From positions 1-64,000 of the forward strand of contig MQRK01173881.1 in NCBI GenBank assembly GCA_001938485.1: a stretch of DNA of 64,000 bases. Direction: 5' to 3'. Below are positions 4,800-55,343 of the stretch, in pieces. Each line of letters opens with the position of its first letter. Position 1 is the stretch's first letter. Both the position numbers and the translations under genes were made by a program. The notes below the pieces were generated by a model, which was not told the origin of the DNA, did no database searches, and saw nothing but the letters and a program-made list of their open reading frames with translations. The DNA comes from Girardia tigrina. Lineage: Eukaryota.

Positions 4800-7063
4800 G
4801 TTACTTTATTAATTTTATTCTTCTTAAGTTAATTCTTGTTTTATTTCCGTTAATTTCAATTAAAGCTGTGTTAATTTTAATTATGTATACTTTAGGTCTG
4901 GTGTACTTGTTTTGAAATTTTTTTTGTATGGTTTCCTATTACAAATGCTTGTCTATTATTATAGTCGTATGTTAGGTTGTTTCTATGTTGTACATTTTTG
5001 TTTTTTTCTATAATTGTACGTTTGTTTGTTATGTCTGTTAGTTTTTCTAGTGGTGATTTCTTTTTTTTCGTCCAGTCTTATTCTGACTGCTAATAGTGTC
5101 TCGTTAAGATTTTTGAGCCAGTTTCTATCATCTCCTTTTGTTCTGATTGTTTCTTTTAAAGTTCTGTAAAATCTTTCAATCTTGCCATTAGACTGGGGAT
5201 TGTACGGCGTCGTTCGTTGTTTGCTTATATCACATTTCTTGTACAGTGTTCTAAACATTTCAGATTCGAATTGCGAACCATGGTCACTAATTATGTTTTT
5301 GGTGGGCCATATCTAGTTATTCATTCATTTTCAATTTTATTAGATACTGTTTCAGCGGTTATATTTTTTAATGGAATAGCTTTTGGTTTTACGATCTATT
5401 AGTATGTGTTAGAATCGGTGGTCACACCACCTGTGAGATCACTATAACTCATCTATACTAAAAAAATATTCTACAAAATAAAATGCAAAAATATCTCGGA
5501 CACAAATACCACAAGGAATAAATCAAATTATTAAATAGAATTAACAATTTTTTATTACAAAAATTTTATTGATCCATAAATAATATTACTACAGATAATC
5601 AATACAAAATTTAATAAAAACAAAATAGTCAATACAACAAAAATAAATTTACTACAATTCACGCGTATCACAATCCACAAGCCAAACAATAATAAAAACT
5701 AATATTTAAAGAAAATTATTTTTTTTTAAAATTAGTTTACATAAAAATTAGACTCTATTTATTTTTTAATAAGTTTTGAGGAACTCTATTTAAGTTTTAT
5801 TTTCTTTGCTATTTTCTTTGTTTTTTTGTTATTTTGTTTAGGTTACAGGTTATACATTTTTTAAAGTTTTTTTTCATGCTTGGCCATATTACTTGTGCGT
5901 GTATTATTTGGTGAGTGGTTCTGTGTCCGTAATGACCAATAATATGTATTCTTTTAATGCATTCCTCTTGTAAATATTTTGGTATGAGAGGTCTCAATTC
6001 CCCTTGATACTATTGTCGTAGTATATTCCTTGAATTTGTAAAATTTTTAGAGATTTATATTCTTTTGTATCGTTAGTGATGTCATCTTGCTTGTTTCTGA
6101 GTCTTCTATTGAGATTATTGGGTTAAATGTTATCTGGTGTTAGCTCTTGATAGGTAGTCTGCCACTATGTTCGACTTTCCTGATATGTGTACCATTTCGC
6201 ATTGGAATTGTGATACATAATTAATTTGTCTGATTTGTCATGGGCTTAGTTCTTTTAACCTGGACATGTTACATAGTGATTTATGGTCTATGTATAGTGT
6301 AAAATGTCTATTTTCTAACAAGTCTTAGAAATGTTTGAAGCTGTTATGTATAGCTAAAATTTCTCGGTCATATGTTGAGTATTTGATTTCTGATGTTTTT
6401 AATTTTTTGTGAATAGAAACCTAATGGTCTTTGTTTGTTGTCGATCTTTTATTCTAACTTTGCTCCGATTGCTATGTTTGAAGCGTCGGTTGTTAGAATT
6501 AGTTCACTGTTTTTTGTAGCATTTCTAGTTCAGTTATTTTATTTATTTCTTCTCTAATTTTTTTGAATTATTTTTCAAGTAGATCATTCCATTTAATTGT
6601 TTCTGTTTTTGTTTTACTTTTTATTTCTTCATTGAAATCTGCTAGTAGTTCTAAAAAATGAGGGATGTATTGGTGGTAAAATTTTAAAGTTTTGTTATGT
6701 TTAATATCTTATCCGGGATCGCTTCTATTTGTTTTTCGCTAATTAGGTACCCTAGGAATGATATTTTTTCTTTTAGGATTTCGCATTTTTTTGTGTTTAT
6801 TTTTAGTCCGTTTTTGTCTAATAGATGGAAAACGTTTTCAATATCGTGTAAGCTTTCTTTTTCGTTCTTGCTTCCTATTAGTATGTCATCTAGGTATAAA
6901 ACGGTATTTCTGGTGTTCATGAATATATTATTCATTGTGCATTGAAATGTAGCAGCTGCGTTTTTCAATCCGAAAGGCATCCTGTTATACTCGTATAGTC
7001 CGAATGGAGTTGTTATAGCCGTTTTCTTAATATCATCTTTGTTCATTGGAATTTGATGATAAG
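4800..7063 (-). pseudogene. pol: AT-rich Ty3/Gypsy pol (RT-RNaseH-integrase), disrupted
   Basis: YHQIPM..KTAITTPFGLYEYNRMPFGLKNA and YLDD (RT); TTDASNIAIGA and YSTYDREILA (RNase H); GHYG...CITC, DHGSQF and PQSNGKIER (integrase). Cut at 7063 by another element. Confidence 0.92.
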
Positions 7064-7541
7064 TGTTGGGATCGAGAAATTTCCCAATCGACACCAGGCC
7101 AATTCATTAAGGGGGCACTGAGTCAGATGGAAAATTTCTCGAGATCTGAAATAAAATAAAATGATTATTAAATAAATATAATATTAATTAATTAAAACTA
7201 ACCTTAATTGATTTTGGACCTTGATCTGAAATAAAAAATATGATTATTAAAATTAATTGAATAAAAAGCTTACCAAATTGATTTCACCTTTGATCCTGAA
7301 ATTAAAAAAAAACAATTATTATCTATGTAATTAGAAAACTTACTTGAGATATCTGATCTTTGATCATTGTTCATATAAATGAAAATTTTGTTATTTTTAT
7401 TAAAACAAAAACTTACTTGATTGATTTGGACTTTGTTGTAGATAGATAACGGAAGGGGCTTATAGTGCCTGCCGAAACTGTTGACAAAAAGTACAGCGAT
7501 CTCGAAATTTATGTGAAAATTTCACAAAAACGAATTACTAT
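7064..7541 (-). mobile_element. LTR-like segment with TATA box and tandem micro-exon/mini-intron units
   Basis: Ends ...CCCAACA exactly at the junction inside the RT of the flanking element. CTATAAG at 7465-7459. GT..TTTCAG units at 7146-7202, 7226-7273 and 7296-7343, plus a donor at 7416. Terminal hairpin at 7070-7146. Confidence 0.6.
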
Positions 7542-7972
7542 TGTGAGGAATATTTGAATGTTTGATGTTTTGTGTTTGAATGTGAATGTTGATTTGGAAA
7601 TGTGTATCTCCTACCCAGATGGATGATTAATATTTTAATTCTTATTATCTAAAAATATGTAATGTTTAAATTTATTTTTAATTTCAAATAATTTTAAATA
7701 AGTTTATTAATTTTTATAATATTTAATAAATAAATCAAATTAATATTTTTTAAATAATTAATTATCATTTTAATTATTATCTAATAAATTTTAAGTGAAT
7801 ATTTTATTAAAATATTTATTTCCCCATTTTCTAAAAAAATAATGAGAATTAATTCATTAATCAATTTTGCTTTGAATGCAAATGTACGAAAGTTTTGATA
7901 AAGATTGTCTTAAGGACAATCAAAATTGTTGTTTAAATAAAAATATAAAAAGTCAAATTGGTGTTCTTAATA
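7542..7972 (+). mobile_element. 5' LTR (family A, TGTGAGGAA...GTTCTTAATA) followed by PBS TGGCG
   Basis: Near-identical to the solo LTR at 33653-34093, whose ends are fixed by a TSD. TGG follows immediately at 7973. Confidence 0.92.
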
Positions 7973-9852
7973 TGGCGACACACAACCATGTGACTCCGAA
8001 TATAAAAGGTCCAGAAACATTCGACGGATCTGAGACAAAAGTGGAAGCATTTATAAAGAATTTCAACAGGTACGCGAAGATAATGGGATTTTCGGAGGAA
8101 AGGAAAATCCTTTTAGTCACGCCAAACATGACACCGGAGGCAATAATCAAGTATGAAACAGCGCCCGGTGAAACATGTGAAGAAAAATTAAGAGCAGCTT
8201 TCTCCAAGGAAAAAACCGTTCTAGATATAATAAAAGAAATGTTAGATTTGAGAATTGGCTCCAGCGATCCCACAATAATATTTAAAAAGTCAGACAAACT
8301 AATAGAGAAATTGGTAGAGAAAAAGCTAGGTAAAAAAGAACTATCGAATTTAGTATACGCTAACTTGATAGATGATGTTGATGTACAAAAACAAATAGCC
8401 ATTCAAGGTATCACGAAATCTGATGAGATTGAAGAAATACAAACAAGAATGTTCGAACATGAGAAAAGAAAAGAAATGCACCAGTGGCAGCATATAATAC
8501 AAAAAGAGAAAATGAATGGAAAACAGTGGAAAATAAAAAGAGAACAACAAGATTGCGGAATAGAGAAATTCCAGAAGATACAAGAAGAAATTTTAGAGTC
8601 AGGAAAATTACTTGTTGGGCATGTCACGAAGAAGGACATGTTAGAAGAGATTGTCCAAATGTGACATGTTATCATTGCAATAACAAAGGACACATAAGAA
8701 CACAATGTTATGAAACCCCGAATAGGTTTAAGGAACGCAGCAATGGAAACGGGATAATGGAAGAAATCGATGGGAAAATGATAGGAAAAAAATACTCGAA
8801 TCAAAGATATAGAGACCGTCTGACGTACACAAATAGGAAATATTCAGTAGCGGAATTGGACGAATTAGACGATGAATTGTATGAAGGAAAACAATCCGCA
8901 AGACGGGGCTATACCGACGAAACTAATAGAAAAGAAGATTCTAAAAGACAGAAATATCCCAGAGGTTACAGAAAATTCAGAGATGATCAAGGAAACGAGG
9001 ATGCATGATCACAGGGAGAGGTGATCAGTGTGCTTCATTAGAAAGTCAATGCAGATGTATGTCTGATTGTACATATGAATGTGTGTGTGATTGTATTTTT
9101 GATTGTATGTATGAAAATATTCCTCTAGAAATGTGTGAATTAGATTTTTGAATAAAGAAAATAATGAAAAATGTGATAACATGGATATTGAAAAAGAAAG
9201 AAAGAAAAGAAATATTACAACAGATATATTAAAAATAGCAAAGTTTGACATAAATTATAAAAATTTGAAAGGACGGCCAAGTGTAGAATATCGTATAAAA
9301 GATAAAAATGTTCAGTGCCTTTTAGATACAGGAGCTCGAGTGAATGTCATTAAAGCGGATTTAATCAAAGGTATGAAAAATATTCAGATTAGAGAAATAA
9401 GAAAGCGTATTCACTGTGCGAATGACTCAGAACTTGTAAACTATGGGACTGTACAATTAAAGGTGATAATAGAAAGGGTACAGAAAACAATAGAGTTTTA
9501 TGTTGTCAAAGAAATAGATCCGGAAATGATTGCTGATATATATTTTTTGGATAAATTTGGAATAAAACTGAAGAAAGAAGCATCAAATATCGATAGCATA
9601 TTGGCTATTAGAGATAGCCCTTCTGATGAAGATAGATTGAAAAGAATAAGAGAATTGTAAAATAATACAGTTGAAAATGAGCTAATGGAACTTTTAACAA
9701 AGTACAGATCAATATTCATTGCTGATAAATGGGATATTGGAAAAACTTCGTTAACCAAACACAAGATAGAAATGCATGGACAACCAGTACTGGTAAAAGC
9801 GTATAGACAACCGAAACATTTTAAAGAGAAACTAGATGATATTATAAAACAC
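7876..9852 (+). pseudogene. gag: Family A Gypsy gag-protease-start of RT, frameshifted and 3'-truncated
   Basis: GPETFDGS gag motif, two CCHC knuckles (CWACHEEGHVRRDC, CYHCNNKGHIRTQC), protease LLDTGA, and pre-RT DIGKT..KHKIE..PV..KAYRQP. Confidence 0.92.
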
Positions 9853-13649: not shown

Positions 13650-13900
13650 TCATCGACACACAAACTCACACAAGCGGGTCTTTTAAAAACCTATACGTAA
13701 CAGTGAAAACGACACACAAACTCACGCGCGTCTTTTTAAAACATTGATATAACATTGAAACAGACACACAAACTCAAACTCGCGCATCTTTTAAAAACTT
13801 CTATGTAACAGTGAAACAGACACACAAACTCCAACATACCCATCTTTTAAAGACATCGATGTAACGTTGAAAGAGACACACAGACACGGCGCACGCGCAC
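13650..13900 (+). repeat. ~55-bp minisatellite, 4-5 diverged units
   Basis: GACACACA(A/G)AC core at about 13655, 13711, 13763, 13819 and 13875. The first four units continue TCTTTTAAA...AAC(A/G)(G/T)TGAAA. Confidence 0.85.
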
Positions 13901-15578: not shown

Positions 15579-17026
15579 TTGGGTGTACAACTAATTAATT
15601 TCGTATTTTTTTGTTAAAAAACCATTTATTTAAGTATAAAAGTGAAAAAATATTTTATTCAAAATATTGTCCATTGGAAGCGGCAACTTTTTCTCATCTG
15701 TCAGGCAATGTATGGATTCCATCCCAAAAAAAACTTCTCATCTTTTGCGCCGAGAAAGTCATCAAGCCATTTTTTAATACCTTCAACATTGGTGAACCGT
15801 ATTCCAGAAAGGTGATTCTGCATCGACCGAAACAAGTGGTAATCAGAAGGAGCTATGTCTGGGCTATAAGGCGGGTGAGGTAGAATTTCCCATCTGGCAT
15901 TTTCCAAATAATTTTTGACCGGTAATGCAACATGTGGCCGAGCATTGTCATGACGGAAAATCAATTTCTCGTGTCTGGTCGCCCATTCTGGCCGTTTTTC
16001 GGCTATTGCTTGCTTCAAACGTATCAATTGTTGCTTGTATAGCTCTCCCGTGATCGTCTGACCCGATTTTAACAGCTCATAGTACAGCACACCCTTCTGA
16101 TCCCACCAAATACAGAGCATTACCTTCAAACCATGAATATTCGGCTTTGGTGTCGATTTGGCTGGTTGGCCTGGCTTCACATATGATCTTTTACGCTTTG
16201 GGTTGTCGTAATGAATCCACTTTTCATCGCCAGTGACAATACGATGTAAAAACGGTTTCTTTGTTTCTTTTTTAAGCAGCATTTCAGACATGCAAAATCG
16301 TCTCTCAACGTCCCTCGGCTTCAATTCGTGTGGCACCCAATTTCCTTGTTTCTGAATGTATCCGGCTGCTTTTTAGAAAAAACGACGTTTAGAAATGGCT
16401 TGTTGAGTGACTTCCAATGTTTTTCCAAGTTCTTCTTGAGTTTGACATGGATCTTGATCGAGTAATGCCTCCAATTCTTTGTCTTCAAACTTTTTTGATG
16501 GACCTGATCGCTCTTTGTCTTCTGTGTCAAAATCGCCACTTTTAAATCGTGCAAACCACTGCTGACATACTCTAACCTCTGGAGCGTATTCAGGATAAGC
16601 TTCTGAGAGTAAACGATGTGCTTCTGTTGCACTTTTCCTTAAATTAAAGAACAAGAGCAAACCTCCCCGCAAATGCTGTTTTGTTGGAACGTAATTTGAC
16701 ATTTTGACTGTAATAAAAAAAATTTGTGTGTTTACTAAAATTCAATAAAATTGACTATTGACTACATAAACAGANNNNNNNNNNNNNNNNNNNNNNNNNN
16801 NNNNNNNNNNNNNNNNNNNNNNNNTTGGAACGTAATTTGACATTTTGACTGTAATAAAAAAAATTTGTGTGTTTACTAAAATTCAATAAAATTGACTATT
16901 GACTACATAAACAGATATGAGGTTAGTAACAAATTCGAAATGATGTAACAAATATGAAATGAGGTAACAAATACGAATATAAGGTTATTTCGTAACAAAT
17001 ACGAAATTAATTAGTTGTACACCTAA
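15579..17026 (-). mobile_element. Full-length mariner, mauritiana (Mos1)-like
   Basis: 30-bp TIRs TT(G/A)GGTGTACAACTAATTAATTTCGTATTT with TA on both sides. Length is inflated by a gap and a 91-bp assembly overlap. Confidence 0.95.
15655..16702 (-). pseudogene. mariner DD34D transposase with two frameshifts
   Basis: MSNYVPTKQHLR N-terminus, WVPHEL, TGDEKW, HDNARPH, YSPDIAPSDY, and ...NGQYFE stop. Confidence 0.95.
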
Positions 17027-17247: not shown

Positions 17248-17663
17248 TGTGAGGAATGTTTTGAATTGTGTGTTGATATTGTGCATGTTGTATGTTGATT
17301 CGGATTGTGCCTCTCCTGCACAGATGGATGATTGGTATTTTCTTTGATTCTTACTAATTAAAAATAATTTAATTTAAATTTAAAGTAAAAAGATTTAAAT
17401 TAATTTTTGAATGTATTATTTATTTTTTTAATGTAATTTAAAATTTTAATATATTAATTTAATATGTTCTTTTTTTAAAAAATGTTTAGATTTAATTTTA
17501 ACCAATTAGATTCTTTATAATTAATAAGTTTTATTAACAGAGTTTCATTTATTGAAAACAATTAGTTTGAACTCAGAAATATATTGATCAAGAGAGATGT
17601 CAAATAGTGAATGCGCTTGTGATATTAATAAATGTTGTAAACCTCATATTGATGTTGTTAATA
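17248..17663 (+). mobile_element. 5' LTR (family A, diverged subfamily) followed by PBS TGGCG
   Basis: TGTGAGGAAT start, CAGATGG core, GTTGTTAATA end, then TGGCGG. Confidence 0.9.
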
Positions 17664-18680
17664 TGGCGGCCACAGCTCATGTGACAACAAACATTATGGG
17701 ACACGAAAAATTTGATGGATCCTAGTAGAAATTAGATGACTTCATAAAAAATTTCGAACGTTATGCGGATATTATGGGTATAACAGAAGATAGAAGATTA
17801 GTGATGGTGACGATCTTCATGACTCCATCAACAATCACAAAATTTTCAGAAGCAGATGGAAATACGTATAAAGAAAAGCTTAAAACGACATTTGTGAAAG
17901 AAAAATCTCTGCTTGACACAATGAAAGATATTTTAAATCTCCGGTGGGGATCTTCAGATCCAGAAGAAACGTTCAAAAAAGCCGAAGAATTAGTAACGAT
18001 ATTAACAGAAAGTAAACTTTCTAAGAAAAAGCTACTCAACCTTGTTTGCATGAATATGGTTAGGATTATTATATGGTTGACGATTATGAGGTGAAAAGAG
18101 AATTGAAATTGAGAGGAGCTACAGAAACAAAGGACACAAAAGATGTAGTTTCAAATATGTATGAACTACGCAAAATGGAAAAAGAAGAAACAGTTGCGGC
18201 ATACAATACGGTAGGTAAACATGATGAATGGAAAACGGTAGGTAAACGTAAACCACACTATATAGAACGCAACCAACAAAGAAATATCGAAAATAGGTAC
18301 ACTAATCAAAGAAATAATGAATAAAAACCGAGAAATAACTATTCAAAAGTAGTAAAATGCTGGGCATGCCACGAAGAAGGACACATCAGAAGAAACTGTC
18401 CAAATATAAAGTGTTCTTATTGCAATAAAAATGGCCATATCAGGATGCAATGCTACATGAACAAGAATAGATTTAAAGAAAGAGACCAATATGTCAGGAA
18501 AAATGAATGGCAAAGAACAAATAACCCACGAAATCAACAGAGGCATCAAAATCGAAGATATGATATTGTAGAAATGCATGATTAAAACGATTACAACGAA
18601 TATGAAGAAACACGATCAAATGAAGGATGTCATAAAATTTTGTGATTTTTACTGAACAAGAAAATTGGTCCGACAATAAT
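17597..18680 (+). pseudogene. gag: Family A gag, second diverged copy, truncated
   Basis: Homologous to 7876-9008 (GSSDP, AAYNT, CWACHEEGHIRRNC, CSYCNKNGHIRMQC). Several stops and frameshifts. Confidence 0.9.
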
Positions 18681-25319: not shown

Positions 25320-26140
25320 CATGGCACGAAGAACGGTGGGTTTGATTCAGAGGATGATGAAAGTTTAGCTGATGATTCTTATAACAACGAAGTAGACCAT
25401 TTGTCAAGTTATGAGGAAGAGGATGATGAAATTGGTGTTGGGATAGAAGGTAAAGGAGGTGACAACAATGAAGATATCAATTCAGAAGCAGGTGCAAACG
25501 ACCTGTCAAAAGATGGCCGCATTTGTAGGTCATCAAAACAAGTTTTATTTATTTTATTGGAGGGAGATGACCAATTCATAATATTTTGAGACGAACCAGA
25601 CTTGACATAGTACAGCATCCTCTGGAATGGATGCATTCAAACTGTTTTTCTCTCAAGCAATCATTGATGTAATTGTGCGAGAAATTAATTCAAGAGCACA
25701 TCATTCGATTATGGAATGGAACCAACAACATCCAGATTCTCTGAAAGTGTGGATAGATGTTGATTCAATCGAGATGTATTGATTCATTGGTTTTGTGATA
25801 TTGGCTGGGGCAACGCAAGCTCGAAAAACCTTTTTCTGAATTGTGGACCAAAAAAGCTGGATCTGTGAAACCAATGTTTATTTCTACTTTGAGTCGAAAT
25901 CGATTCAAGGAAATAAAACGTTTTCTTCGATTTGACGACTTGTTGACGTGTGATGTCAGGCAGCGAACTGATAAGTTGGCTGCTATTAGAAATGTTATTG
26001 ACCAGTTTACTCACAACTGCAGAACAATTATGAATCCATGTCCAGAGCTGATAATTTATGAACAGCTGCTAGCATTCAGAGGACTCTGTCCATTTAGGCA
26101 GTTTATTCCAAGTAAACTTTCCAAATATATCACGGGATTC
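25320..26140 (+). pseudogene. piggyBac (PGBD4-like) transposase remnant
   Basis: Acidic N-terminus, then LSRNRFKEIKRFLRFDD...DKLAAIR...EQLLAFRGLCPFRQFIPSK. Confidence 0.9.
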
Positions 26141-27857
26141 TTGCAGATTTCGGAAATGAGTAGCATAAATGCAACAAAATATTCCTTTGAAGTTAAATAA
26201 TTATAGGTCGCTTAAAATAAATAAATATGTTACAAAAAAGTTAAGTGGTACAAAAACCTGTGGTAGACGCTGTACCCCACTTCATCTATCCGTGTTATAT
26301 TTTTATTTTAGTCTTCGAAAGGTTTATTACAACATTATTTTATAATAATTATTAAAATTTATATCATTAAATTAATTTACATTTTACAAATGCAAACAAT
26401 CTCTTGAATAGAACAAACAAAATCAATTGAAATAAAGGATTTATTTATTTAATAAATAAACAAATCAGTATTAAAGAAATAATTTTTATAAAAATTATTC
26501 ATACGTAACAACAAAATAAATATATCATTTTTATTAATTTCATGTTTATATGTATATTATTTCTTATTTATATTTTATTCTAATTTTTTTATATTTACTG
26601 TTCTATTTTCTTTATTTTCAATGACATTTTAGTCATATTAAATCAAAATTAATATTCATTCATTCATTCTTTTATATTTGTACTAAACGCATGTTTAAAA
26701 TTTGAAATTAATTAAATAATATTTGTATTTATTCACGGCATTGTTTTTCTTATTTTCTATTATTTTTCTCTTAATAATTTTCCTATAATTTCTTAATAAT
26801 AATAATTTTCTATAATTTTAAGCGGATCACGGAATTTACCATGATCCGTTGATGACACAGTATAAAACGGCAAATTACATAACTTGCTTATTAAATGTTA
26901 ATAATAACTATGGTTTGGCACAGGCCATATTTTAACAGTTTTTTACTGGGTACCCACTTTCTGACAATGTCGTGAAAATGAAACCTATTTTTCTGAAATG
27001 CATCTTTTTCAAACCATACGGGAAATAACTTTTATTATTGATACCTTTCAATGAATAACTCTGGTTGACCTCTGTACACCTGCACAATCACAACTTGATC
27101 TATAGAAATGGGACTGTGATTAACATCAGAATTATGAGTTCATGAATCAGTCTATTTGCCGTGCTGCAAAGAGTAAGATTCAAAATGGGGAGCGAGCGAT
27201 AAAGAAGAATAAATTTTATCTCTAAAGTTTATTTATCAGATAAACCAGTTACATCTGGAAGGAGGAGGAAGATAGAGCTACACCACGGAATATTCTAGCT
27301 GGGTGCCCACTTCATCTATTAATAAATGACTGGACACCCAAATGGGCGCCCAGTTACTATCTTAAAACGTTGCCAGGTTTGGCGAATATTCTTTAACCGA
27401 GCGGCGCCCACACAATTACTTGCGTTCTGTAATGAAAGACGATTGGTTATCTTAACAATCGAATTCTTCGAAGAAACCAATTTTGATATTTTTGACGAAT
27501 TTGCATGTATCTTAACAGAAAAGATTAAATTTAAAATAAAGTAATATGGTTTTATTTATTATAATTTATGTTTGAAATGAAATAAAATATAATTTTAATA
27601 CTTTTGTATCTATCAATAATACTTTTAATACTCTTGTATCCTTCATCTTGTTACATGGATAAGCACAATTTTTAATGTTTACCATAGGGGAAATAAACTC
27701 TAGCTAATAATTCTCTGATAATAAGTAATGATTTTTGAAAAATAATTTCCATTATTACTTCTTCATCATTATTAATACATTTCTAAAACGGTATTCCTTA
27801 TCTTCTGTATTTTATACATCATATATCTTTTGAGTAACCATTTATTATTTAACAATT

Positions 27858-33188: not shown

Positions 33189-33503
33189 TATGAGACATGT
33201 TTCGAATTGTTTGTTGTTTTATATTGTGCATGTTGTTCGGATTGTGCCTCTGCTACCCAGATGGCTGATTGGTATCTTTGATTCCTACTAATTAAAAATA
33301 ATTTAATTTTAAATAATTAGAATTTTTATAATTAATAATTATTAATAAATATTTTTCATTTATTGTAAAATTAATATGAATTTAGAAATTATATTAATCA
33401 AGAAAAATGTCGAATAGTGAAAGTGATTTGAATAATTGTTGTAATGACAATTTTGTTTGTGATGTTAATCAATGTTTAAAAAACCATATTGATGTTGTTA
33501 ATA
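33189..33503 (+). mobile_element. Solo LTR family A (internally shortened)
   Basis: TATGAG...GTTGTTAATA with TSD AGGCT/AGTCT. Confidence 0.85.
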
Positions 33504-33652
33504 AGTCTGATATTATACAAGTCTCTAAAAGTGTGTTATCCAAAATTATATAAATTAATCTCTTAAAAGTGTGAATAACGACAAAATCCATTTGAAAATT
33601 GAAAAACCAAACTCGTCAAAAATACCTTTATGATACATATCGAGTTCATTAC

Positions 33653-34093
33653 TGTGAGAAATATTTTGAATGTTTGAAGTTTTGTGTTTGAATTTGTATG
33701 TTGATTTGGAAATGTGTCTCTCCTACCCAGATGGATGATTAATATTTGAATTCTTATTATCTAAAAATTTGTAATGTTTAAATTTATTTTTAATTGAAAA
33801 TAATTGGAAAATTTTAAATAAGTTAATTAGTTTTTTTACAATTTTTAATAAATAAATCAAATTAATATTTTTTAAATAATTAATAATCATTTTAATTTTT
33901 ATCCAATAAGTTTTGTGTAAAAATTTTAATAAATTATTTATTTCTCTATTTGCTAAAAAATAATAAGAATTAATTCATTAATCAATTTAGTTTACAATGC
34001 ACTCGTACGAAAGATTTGACAAAGATTGTCTTAAGGACAATCAAAATTGTTGTGTAAATAAAAATTTGACAAGTCAAATTGGTGTTCTTAATA
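33653..34093 (+). mobile_element. Solo LTR family A
   Basis: TGTGAG...GTTCTTAATA with perfect TSD ATTAC. Confidence 0.95.
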
Positions 34094-38412: not shown

Positions 38413-39565
38413 TTAGGTGTACAAGTATGAAATGCGGATTTCAGAAAACAGATTGTGCACAATGCAAAAAGTAGGTCAATGGTTAGGCAATGATGTCATA
38501 ATATTGAGTAATTATGTAGTGTCTCANNNNNNNNNNNNNNNNNNNNNNNNNNNNNNNNNNNNNNNNNNNNNNNNNNNNNNNNNNNNNNNNNNNNNNNNNN
38601 NNNNNNNNNNNNNNNNNNNNNNNNNNNNNNNNNNNNNNNNNNNNNNNNNNNNNNNNNNNNNNNNNNNNNNNNNNNNNNNNNNNNNNNNNNNNNNNNNNNN
38701 NNNNNNNNNNNNNNNNNNNNNNNNNNNNNNNNNNNNNNNNNNNNNNNNNNNNNNNNNNNNNNNNNNNNNNNNNNNNNNNNNNNNNNNNNNNNNNNNNNNN
38801 NNNNNNNNNNNNNNNNNNNNNNNNNNNNNNNNNNNNNNNNNNNNNNNNNNNNNNNNNNNNNNNNNNNNNNNNNNNNNNNNNNNNNNNNNNNNNNNNNNNN
38901 NNNNNNNNNNNNNNNNNNNNNNNNNNNNNNNNNNNNNNNNNNNNNNNNNNNNNNNNNNNNNNNNNNNNNNNNNNNNNNNNNNNNNNNNNNNNNNNNNNNN
39001 NNNNNNNNNNNNNNNNNNNNNNNNNNNNNNNNNNNNNNNNNNNNNNNNNNNNNNNNNNNNNNNNNNNNNNNNNNNNNNNNNNNNNNNNNNNNNNNNNNNN
39101 NNNNNNNNNNNNNNNNNNNNNNNNNNNNNNNNNNNNNNNNNNNNNNNNNNNNNNNNNNNNNNNNNNNNNNNNNNNNNNNNNNNNNNNNNNNNNNNNNNNN
39201 NNNNNNNNNNNNNNNNNNNNNNNNNNNNNNNNNNNNNNNNNNNNNNNNNNNNNNNNNNNNNNNNNNNNNNNNNNNTATTCACCAGACTTGGCTCCTTCAG
39301 ATTACCATTTGTTTGCATCGATGGGTCACGCACTTGCTCAGCAGCGCTTTTATTCTTACGAAAATGTGCAAAAATGGGTCGATGAATGGTTCATAGAAAA
39401 AAAGGAAGACTTTTACTGGCGAGGTATCCACAATTTGAGATATAGATGGGACAAGTGTATCATTAGTAATGGAGCATATTTTGAATAAAGCTTTTTTTAT
39501 CGTTCTTTTGTTTTTAACGTATTTCTTTTCAAAATTTAATCCGCATTTCATACTTGTACACCTAA
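38413..39565 (+). mobile_element. mariner, Mos1-like (interior in assembly gap)
   Basis: Perfect TIRs TTAGGTGTACAAGTATGAAATGCGGATT, TA TSD, and C-terminus SPDLAPSDYHLFASMGHALA...GAYFE. Confidence 0.95.
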
Positions 39566-51579: not shown

Positions 51580-52227
51580 TACAGATGAGAAATGGTGTCT
51601 ATACTCGAACATGACACGCAGAAGAAGCTGAACAGACAAGGGTACAATTGCACAACCTCAGGCAAAGGCCGACCTGCATCAAAAGAAGCTAATGGTTTGT
51701 GTCTGGTGGGATGTAAATGGCGTGGTTCACTGGGAAATGTTGGAACGCCATCAATCCATCAACGTCCAATTATACTGTCAACAACTGCAACGGGTGGCAG
51801 ACGCGATTGCACAAACACGACCAGAATTGACTGATATCATGTTTCTTCATGAAAACATCCGACCACACGTTGCAAATCTCACCAGTGGTAAACTTCTGGA
51901 GCTGGAGTGGGAAGTTCTCCCTCACCCACCGTACTCGCCCGACCTGGCACCAACAAACTACCACTTATTCCCGGCACTGCAGAACTTCTTGAGTGGCAAA
52001 ACGTTCGCAACTGATGATGAATTGAAAGCTGCAGTTGGAGACTTCCTCAAAAGCAAACCAGTTGAATTTTACAACAAAGGTGTCCATGATCTACCCCGTC
52101 GTTGGAAGCAGGTGTTCGAAAAGAACGGTGATTACATTGATGATTGATATGTGCCTTTTGCTGCATTTTTTGTGCTGTATATAAAAGTTGTAATAAAATT
52201 TGTGCGAGAACTTTGTTTCCAACCTAA
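51580..52227 (+). mobile_element. 5'-truncated mariner
   Basis: DEKWCLY, VCVWWD, HENIRPH, YSPDLAPTNYHLF; 3' TIR ...TCCAACCTAA followed by TA. Confidence 0.93.
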
Positions 52228-53235: not shown

Positions 53236-54219
53236 ATTATATATACAATAAAGTTTATTATATGAGAAATATTTTATATGACATTTATATTGTATGTTGT
53301 TTTAGAGTGATGTATCTCCTATCTGGATGACTGGTTGTTGTATTACATATTGCATATATTAATTTTTATTAATGTTTTCAAAAATTTAAAATAAGTTTCG
53401 AATACTTTTTAAACAATTTGTTTTAATATATATTTTTAAAATCGAATAGGAACATCGAATGTTTTTCATATTTTCAATAGACTGATGACAAATACTGAAA
53501 GTTAAATTTAGGATTGGTGCTATAATACTTAAATCTTTAAAAAATATTAAAAAATTATTATTATTAAAAAAACTATTTTTTGACAAATCAACCATTATCA
53601 TCAGGTTATAAAAAAATAATTTGATTCATCTGTATATATAACATGTTTCTCTGTCTCCGGGGGTCTAATTTGTAAAATATTACAACACAAGCTCTCCCAT
53701 AAATTGAAGCCCGATTTAATTTAATTAAGTTTGACCTAATTCAATTTTGTTTAAATATTAATTTTACAATATTTTTTTAAAAATTAAAACAGTATGTCTA
53801 ACGGACAAAGAAGAAGCTATTTTTTATACCTACAAAAATGTTCGATCGATTTGGTTATAAAGAAATATACACCAAATATTCTCTTGGTTCAAAAATGTTC
53901 ATAACACATAATAATAGAACACATTTTTTGGAATTAATTTTTCAAAATACATTGTCTTGAAAATATATTTTTAAGTGAATGAGTTTCTTTTAATAAAAAA
54001 ATTCATCTTGCTTGAAATGCCTAAATAATTTTATCAATACATTAAATTAGTGTTTATTTTTCATAATTTTCTTGAAACAATTAAAATAAACTAAAAAAAT
54101 AAAAAACTGAAAATATTTTTTTCCAAATTGTTTTTCATTTCAATTTAAAAAGTAATTTACACATTTTTCAAATTTTATTTTAAATATTTACTTTATTTTT
54201 TTTATTCAGTTGATCTTTA

Positions 54220-54799
54220 ATGTCCATCGAAAATTTCTGTAGTAATCCTAAGAGACTCAAGTTGGACGATGAAATCACCGAAATTAATGTCAAAACATTG
54301 TATATAAACAATTCAAATCATAACTGCGAAGAATCATTGGATTCCCCAATGAATTCCTGCGAACAAGTTTCAATTAGTTCGGCTTTCGACCAAGACTCTT
54401 CATCTATTTTAAGTGGTTCCGTTTGCGAAAGCAATTGCGAAATTTACTCAGCAGAAATCATTCAAAAAAGTATTTTAAAATCAACTACAAACTGTCCAAA
54501 AGAAACTCCAAACAACAAAAACCGAATCAAATTTCAAGATGTAGAAATATTTTATTTTAATCGTCAACAGAGTTTCTGTTCCGTTCCCAGTATCGGGGGC
54601 TCGGCACTCGGAATGGAAATGCAACATTTTCTTTCTGAAAAATTTGATTTAAACAAAAATCTCGATTTGTTTAAATCGAGTAAAAAACTCAACTCCGATT
54701 TCTATGATCTTCACAAAGATGGCAATTACAATAACGAAAGTTATTCTATGCTTCAACCGATTGTTGCAAAACACCGAAGAATATTATTAAAAAATTCGG
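54220..54799 (+). CDS. csrnp: Cysteine/serine-rich nuclear protein (CSRNP/Axud1 family), first coding exon
   Basis: IKFQDVEIFYFNRQQSFCSVPSIGGSALGM and LQPIVAKHRRILLKNSG match the CSRNP_N motifs. Acceptor TTTATTCAG at 54209 and donor G|GTAAT at 54800. The downstream Cys-rich exon was not found in this window. Confidence 0.9.
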
Positions 54800-55343
54800 G
54801 TAATGGTTTTTTTTTCATGTAAAATTTTAGATTATAAATGAATATTTAATATTATTTGTAAGAAATATCGGTTACAGATAAAAATACAGCATTTTTTCAA
54901 AATATAGTCTTTTACCTATTCAACAAAAACAATTAAACATTTTATAAAAACAAACACAAAAGAAAATCAAAACCAAATACAAAAATTTTATTCCAAATAT
55001 TTAATTGCCTCACATATTGCATAAAACAGCAATCTTGGTAATATTTATCATAAAAAAACTGAAAATAATTAACTTCAAATATTTATTCAAATTCAAATTG
55101 TACACGTTTAACCTTATTTAAACAAAAACATCAAGAGACTTAGTTCAGAATATTTTTTAATCAATTATGATGATATAGTAAATGTTATGTTAATATAATA
55201 AAGATAGAAGAGACATAAATATAATTAATTATCCTTGCAATTTTCAAGTAATTAAATTACAAAATTTAATGCAAAATAAAACAAAGTAGTAATAAAAGAC
55301 AATTAGAAAATTGAAAAAAATGCTGTACCGGTGATTAAAGTGG

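Follow-up and report, generated by a model that had tools for sequence, protein, structure and literature searches.

In Girardia tigrina, a family of LTR elements that we call family A carries, at the very start of its U3 region, an array of four short predicted introns and intervening micro-exons that reads antisense to the element and closes with a stable hairpin. We interpret the array as a probable outward-facing Pol II unit. Its predicted product is a hairpin RNA, short, spliced, and non-coding, which would hold down the RNA of the element itself, and we put the probability of this reading as a whole at roughly 0.65. One copy of the array lies in the window, meaning the whole stretch of 64,000 nucleotides that was analysed (contig MQRK01173881.1, positions 1 to 64,000). 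Coordinates below are window positions unless a locus is named.

The original prediction held the segment to be an LTR-like element extending from 7064 to 7470. Its LTR call is borne out by the wider family, whose full LTRs measure 1.14-1.52 kb, start with TGTTGG, finish with CCAACA, and show 4-bp target-site duplications in 14 of the 18 two-ended copies (11 perfect, three with one mismatch); the other four adjoin internal sequence. Judging from these flanks, the two-ended copies are solo, 5' and 3' LTRs. The start at 7064 also stands, but the repeat does not end at 7470, since comparison with other copies carries the homology on to 7541. The window thus holds, at 7064..7541 on the plus strand, the first 478 bp (the U3 start) of a family-A LTR of subfamily A1, with 91-94% identity and common ends; no further part of that LTR was found in the 64-kb window, from which the rest is absent. 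What had been described as a CAACA end is the LTR terminus TGTTGGG (7064..7070, plus strand), inverted relative to the other LTR end, so that the minus-strand CCCAACA finishes at 7064. It was re-found on the minus strand at the predicted position, as were the CTATAAG word, the four donors, the three TTTCAG acceptors, and the hairpin.

The assembly (1.43 Gb, AT-rich, 255,254 contigs, some of them duplicates) gave 1144 candidate copies in a DNA search, and the 40 that were scored, the window itself excepted, are 91-94% identical. Exact patterns for the two LTR ends matched 152 and 138 times genome-wide, and the family-A copy number is at least 150-270. Most of the variation in LTR length is explained by the number of copies (2-6) of a tandem repeat of ~103 bp with a palindromic motif in each unit (full LTRs L006, L008, L052, and L058), a candidate bidirectional enhancer. 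Readings as a Helitron, MITE, or DIRS element were rejected on the TG..CA ends, the 4-bp target-site duplications, the primer site, and the gag found. The same ends and duplications set family A apart from Troyka LTR elements, which have CG..CG ends and 3-bp duplications as described in the available text of their report (PMC12440569).

The family-A LTR is itself part of a three-layer nest. Its target was a reverse-transcriptase (RT) fragment of an older element (6684..7063, minus strand), which carries MPFGLKNAAATFQ and YLDD, both of which we take to be reverse-transcriptase motifs; the family-A LTR is in turn interrupted by the LTR/leader of an unrelated element (7542..7972, plus strand) with an 88% copy at 33653-34093. 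Gag-like and protease-like frames, read from motifs, follow the leader of the interrupting element at 7972-9660. This TGTGAG-starting LTR family has several copies in the window (7542-9700, 17248-18615, and 33191-34093), two of them with gag-like frames. Further motifs at 15701-16741, 38520-39488, 51632-52147, and 25799-26200 presumably mark mariner-like transposase fragments and one piggyBac-like fragment. Two tandem repeats, one of 21 bp and GC-rich, the other of 56 bp, occur at 77-285 and 13655-13882, and the 21-bp repeat recurs at other loci (L059, L078, and L087). A host-like frame at 54214-54822 (plus strand) has what we take to be a CSRNP-like motif; for 54217-54819, a protein search among longer proteins gave no homologue at E<=0.001.

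The orientation of the element follows from what lies beyond its LTRs. Among 100 listed flanks per LTR end, nine share one sequence past the hairpin end and six share another past the far end. Beyond the far end, six distinct 5' junctions hold an 18-nt match to the 3' end of tRNA-Pro(TGG) with 0-3 mismatches, and the match to the tRNA-Pro(TGG) of the same genome is complete (18/18) at L055. In all six (L010, L053, L054, L055, L056, and L060) a spacer of 9 nt separates LTR and primer site. The usual spacing is much shorter, 0-4 nt. For ta-TRIM elements it is given as 4 nt in the text available to us (PMC4558846). Patterns with TGG after the LTR and spacers up to 5 nt had yielded no primer site, because the true spacer is 9 nt. 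A gag frame lies ~2 kb past the primer site, on the strand opposite to the introns; in one single contig (L051) gag is followed by the 3' LTR in that orientation, and five further contigs join gag to the 3' internal part. Both junction types expected of paired LTRs were found and are linked via overlapping contigs, with no contig examined carrying both LTRs. Since the window's plus strand is the one with primer site and gag, it is the element's sense strand. U3 therefore begins at the hairpin end, and the exon-intron unit runs antisense to the element. A putative sense TATA-like word and AATAAA signals are located towards the far end in full LTRs, in the part that is missing from the window.

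The gag assignment draws on two families. The family-A gag matches PF03732 at E 7e-4, below the curated cut-off, while the gag of a sister family (family B, ~75% identical in gag DNA) matches the CCHC zinc finger PF00098 at E 1e-11 and PF19259 at E 0.003; a protein search with the family-B gag gave nothing at E<=0.001. Combined across A and B, these matches supply the capsid-like domain and the CCHC knuckle of a Ty3/gypsy (Metaviridae) gag. The family-A internal region further comprises a frame X and, near its 3' end, a C-terminal remnant of integrase (IN), in keeping with a pol order in which IN comes last. The gag is decayed, and nine internal stretches yielded no core of protease (PR), RT, RNase H, or IN, so the family-A copies seen are non-autonomous. 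A block with fusion glycoprotein, PR, RT, RNase H, and IN at L052:5351-9999 was set aside as another element, being in opposite orientation and past the family-A internal region; the second half of its glycoprotein shares one frame with the protease. In family B, frame X spans ~900 codons, with gag before it and a fusion glycoprotein of the Monjiviricetes type after it (L076:5657-9655 and L072:5964-7672); in one family-B contig the glycoprotein matches PF24664 at E 1e-12. Frame X has no Pfam match, and its best Atlas match reaches only 0.76. Family A resembles LARDs, the non-autonomous LTR elements of >4 kb, in keeping LTRs and primer site without PR, RT, RNase H, or IN core, and differs from them, as far as the accessible part of their description goes, in retaining a decayed gag, frame X, and the IN remnant and in having no recognisable polypurine tract (PMC4558846).

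We now turn to the array itself, read on the minus strand. Predicted exon 1 (7417..7435) would begin ~30 nt past the TATA-like box, a start placed by spacing. It is followed by predicted intron 1 (7375..7416), which has a GTAAGT donor at 7416 and is shortened, with a broken acceptor, in the window copy; elsewhere in family A this intron measures 46-48 nt, and of the 32 copies aligned, 29 have its acceptor intact. Next come a predicted micro-exon 2 of 31 nt (7344..7374), with an ATG start in A1 only, and a predicted intron 2 of 48 nt (7296..7343, GTAAGT..TTTCAG), whose signals are kept in both subfamilies. Micro-exon 3 (7274..7295) has 22 nt, or 23 nt in A2, intron 3 (7226..7273, GTAAGC..TTTCAG) 48 nt, micro-exon 4 (7203..7225) 23 nt, and intron 4 (7146..7202, GTTAGT..TTTCAG) 57 nt. 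Exon 5 (7064..7145), of 82 nt, holds the hairpin and runs to the LTR edge. The TTTCAG acceptors begin at 7301, 7231, and 7151. Four donors and three introns had been predicted: the three introns with acceptors stand, and the family adds a fourth (7416-7375), the one whose acceptor is broken in the window, giving family A four introns of 46-57 nt.

These introns have the marks of the U2 type, that is, GT..AG borders, a donor consensus, and a pyrimidine-rich acceptor. Across the 32 aligned copies (29 of A1 and three of A2, all sharing ancestry), GT is present at introns 1-4 in 30, 32, 29, and 32 copies and AG in 29, 26, 31, and 29, acceptor 2 being undercounted by two A2 copies that lie out of register. 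In pairwise alignment A1 and A2 both end all four introns in AG, with acceptor 2 lost in one A2 copy. Three intron-shaped GT..AG patterns fall within the 300-nt array, as many as one dinucleotide shuffle in 2000 produced, and elsewhere in the 64 kb there are five scattered matches, counting both strands. As predicted, the spliced product holds no long open reading frame: it measures 177 nt, and its longest ATG frame is 24 aa in eight of 12 intact copies, 45 aa in two, 14 aa in one, and 2 aa in one. Because exon 2 has no ATG in A2 and exon 3 there measures 23 nt, the unit is non-coding. Behind the 3' LTR, no conserved antisense frame was found in eight family-A and 14 family-B junctions.

The claim that splice signals are kept while intron interiors drift also holds, both between the subfamilies and among the four paralogous units. 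None of 20 donor positions differs between A1 and A2, against interior differences of 18/36 in intron 1, 8/36 in intron 2, 3/37 in intron 3, and 0/46 in intron 4, and the interiors of the paralogous introns are 46-69% alike. Within A1, per-copy losses amount to 1.4% for donors, 4.3% for AG, and 1.4-1.6% for interiors. Copies of A1 thus lose their signals at least as fast as their interiors, which points to selection that acted in the lineages that transpose, with the resident copies left outside it.

Family B bears out the proposed tandem amplification of one exon-intron unit, for it has one such unit where family A has four. The unit of family B is intron-like and stands directly before the hairpin; its donor is weak, whereas its AG is mostly preserved. 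The sequences fit the amplification of one ancestral unit to four. The LTR of family B may be long and gene-bearing. A coiled-coil basic frame of ~200+ codons lies past its palindromic repeats, in sense orientation and ~680-1300 nt from the LTR start (L087, L097, L101, and L105), and up to 1.6 kb the sequence showed no far LTR end.

The hairpin is a stem-loop of ~70 nt (7072..7142, minus strand) with a folding energy of -33.1 kcal/mol and a z-score of -4.56; none of 200 shuffles was as stable. Its length falls within the range of miRNA-precursor stem-loops (~60-80 nt). An Rfam search of 6500-8200 gave five matches, all far below gathering scores. Family B has a hairpin of the same place and shape with another sequence (z -4.82). 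The 3' LTR junction of both families lacks a polypurine tract and shows a C-rich or pyrimidine tract instead. There, at a distance of 5-6 nt from the LTR, an inverted near copy of the tRNA-Pro primer site, 11 nt long, is present on the minus strand, with one mismatch in L008 and two to three in the others (L051, L052, and L061; L088, L094, and L105). Such a copy might allow tRNA priming of the plus strand or pairing of both RNA ends; our literature search found no precedent for it. At L109, L111, and L112, tRNA-Pro(TGG) genes stand in tandem with a spacing of ~646 bp.

These neighbours raise the question whether the hairpin serves reverse transcription instead, as a cis-element on minus-strand cDNA beside the origin of the plus strand. 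Such a role would be compatible with a spliced antisense RNA, and it gains from the hairpin abutting the LTR edge in both families, from the inverted primer-site copy and pyrimidine tract in place of a polypurine tract, and from the sense strand folding as well (z -2.83 in A and -3.98 in B). Yet the stem begins at the last acceptor in both families, the spliced strand folds better (the antisense strand has the lower energy in 29 of 37 family-A and 12 of 15 family-B copies), and the introns would be left unexplained. We consider this account unlikely.

In the reading that we prefer, transcription would start behind the TATA-like CTATAAG (7465-7459), which lies in the 11-nt centre of a palindromic motif with 7-bp arms (7450..7474, minus strand). 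The motif recurs two to five times deeper in the LTR in a non-TATA form and is also common to family B. The TATA form is found in all 32 intron-proximal motifs versus 2 of 56 upstream repeats, and this restriction favours a role as TATA box, which we infer for CTATAAG. Downstream, AATAAA stands 40 nt past the LTR in all eight family-A 3' junctions; in family B it occurs within 700 nt in four of 14 junctions, and in none at +40.

Evidence on splicing comes from contigs of four public runs, from four studies, aligned in copy L052 to exon 5 and the sequence bordering it. No run listed for the repeat is recorded as RNA, which tells neither way; the runs used (X1, X2, X3, and X7) are RNA by guess, and their contigs are strandless and hold no start information, the strand being inferred from GT-AG. 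On that footing, spliced junctions of the predicted kind do occur: exon 4 is joined to exon 5, with intron 4 removed, in one of 12 X2 contigs and four of 20 X3 contigs. The X2 joint has 20 letters on its short side, and in three X3 joints each side exceeds 31 letters. Exons 3 and 4 are joined as well in one of the X3 contigs, and another keeps intron 3 with intron 4 gone. None of the 12 X7 contigs and not the one X1 contig has joined ends, and unspliced contigs are present in X2, X3, and X7 as well. The organism codes of X2 and X3 differ from those of X1 and X7, and intronless DNA is possible there. The check for intronless genomic copies that the original prediction had called for gave 0 intronless versus 273 intron-bearing junctions for intron 4, and no intronless junction for intron 3 (both at <=1 mismatch). 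If the runs are RNA, introns 3 and 4 are therefore gone from RNA and present in DNA, as U2-type introns should be. Two of the joined X3 contigs extend at least 255 letters upstream of exon 5, beyond a start at 7435 even with introns 1-2 retained, although contigs can chain different molecules. Most aligned contigs run from the LTR into unique flanks, and among the contig pieces listed none that begins in exon 5 of family A leads deep into internal sequence, bar one short X2 overlap.

Placing the introns antisense in U3 removes the paradox of intron loss. The sense genomic RNA would be unspliceable at antisense sites, and reverse transcription would retain the introns; being inherited intact, they could multiply from one to four free of cost. 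[quoted passage not shown] Solo and 5' LTRs would instead feed host DNA with spliced leaders, for which the unique flanks seen in most contigs leave room. The weakest step is the last one, in which cap-proximal splicing would stabilise or export the antisense RNA, and that RNA, or a small RNA derived from the hairpin, would limit the element; we give it slightly less than even odds. A more far-reaching version would make U3 the seat of a complete antisense spliced Pol II small-RNA gene with multiplied cap-proximal introns, proof against reverse transcription. Its miRNA-like hairpin RNA would pass as host mRNA and tune genes of the element or the host, solo LTRs would seed spliced promoters, and the inverted tRNA-Pro site may replace the polypurine tract, with tRNA priming both strands. 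As a package this seems improbable to us.

A more modest account, which we likewise rate as improbable, is that a captured host exon-intron fragment was amplified in the LTR, has no promoter of its own, and is spliced only when the host reads through it. The over-long upstream parts of two joined contigs agree with this, as do the unique flanks that most contigs enter and the neutral decay of resident copies, and CTATAAG, lying inside a repeated palindrome, is perhaps part of an enhancer. However, read-through does not readily explain why both subfamilies and four units keep donors and acceptors despite interior drift, which needs selection in transposing lineages. It also has to accommodate a TATA form confined to the motif ~50 nt before donor 1 and an intron-like unit at the same place in family B.

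A plain AT-rich minisatellite with accidental splice-like words would account for the 70-bp period that TRF reports at 7179-7309, as duplication would multiply one chance unit, but the signals are kept across interiors that have diverged so far, and the contig joints fall at GT and AG (a contradiction if the runs are RNA), which makes this explanation very improbable. Last comes the geometry first proposed, with sense introns in R/U5 and splicing separating mRNA from genomic RNA: a TATA-like box ~400 nt from a CA end does resemble U3-R-U5 on one strand alone, but primer site and gag occupy the opposite strand, the unit lies antisense at the start of U3 and needs no such sorting, and intronless copies are lacking among 273 junctions, so that hardly any chance is left to it.

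The array has a wider meaning. It shows how an LTR can hold introns stably, and how introns are gained by stepwise duplication inside an LTR, from the single unit of family B to the four units of family A with its two diverged subfamilies. The two families form a natural series for asking what splicing gives to antisense transposon RNA. At least 150-270 copies may moreover send spliced leaders into adjacent host DNA.

Several retroelements are known to produce antisense RNA, retroviruses among them. Bovine leukaemia virus (BLV), a deltaretrovirus, reportedly makes spliced antisense transcripts, AS1 and AS2, from its 3' LTR. In such viruses the antisense introns extend out of the LTR into internal sequence. 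Family A differs in having all four introns wholly in U3 and no conserved antisense frame. According to the portion of the literature available, the 3'-LTR antisense transcription of deltaretroviruses (HTLV) and the U3 antisense activity of MLV are alike in being LTR-driven and spliced and in entering the element when they start in the 3' LTR but host DNA when they start in the 5' LTR, and they differ in belonging to vertebrate retroviruses, several of which have antisense proteins (PMC8622228). Micropia of D. hydei and the plant elements Retand and Grande are LTR elements of the Ty3/gypsy type with antisense units of their own; in the parts of the reports consulted, these units are internal and RT-complementary or protein-coding, with no mention of an intron array in the LTR (PMC2615633, PMC11963269). 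Our wider search, covering main texts, with most subscription papers and Repbase outside its scope, likewise found no intron array inside an LTR.

The HeT-A and TART elements of Drosophila are a close parallel in kind, with an internal antisense promoter near the 3' end, multi-intron non-coding RNAs, and introns absent from the transposition template; by the accounts consulted they are non-LTR telomeric elements with alternative and partly cryptic splice sites (PMC2615633, PMC1636488). The role of their antisense splicing is called elusive in the section available (PMC2615633). Family A is set apart from them by a unit inside the LTR, tandem exon-intron repeats of 70 nt, exons of 22-31 nt, and a conserved terminal hairpin. 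By analogy, the family-A array is predicted to function like the antisense RNAs of HeT-A/TART and of deltaretroviruses and MLV, while being a member of neither group.
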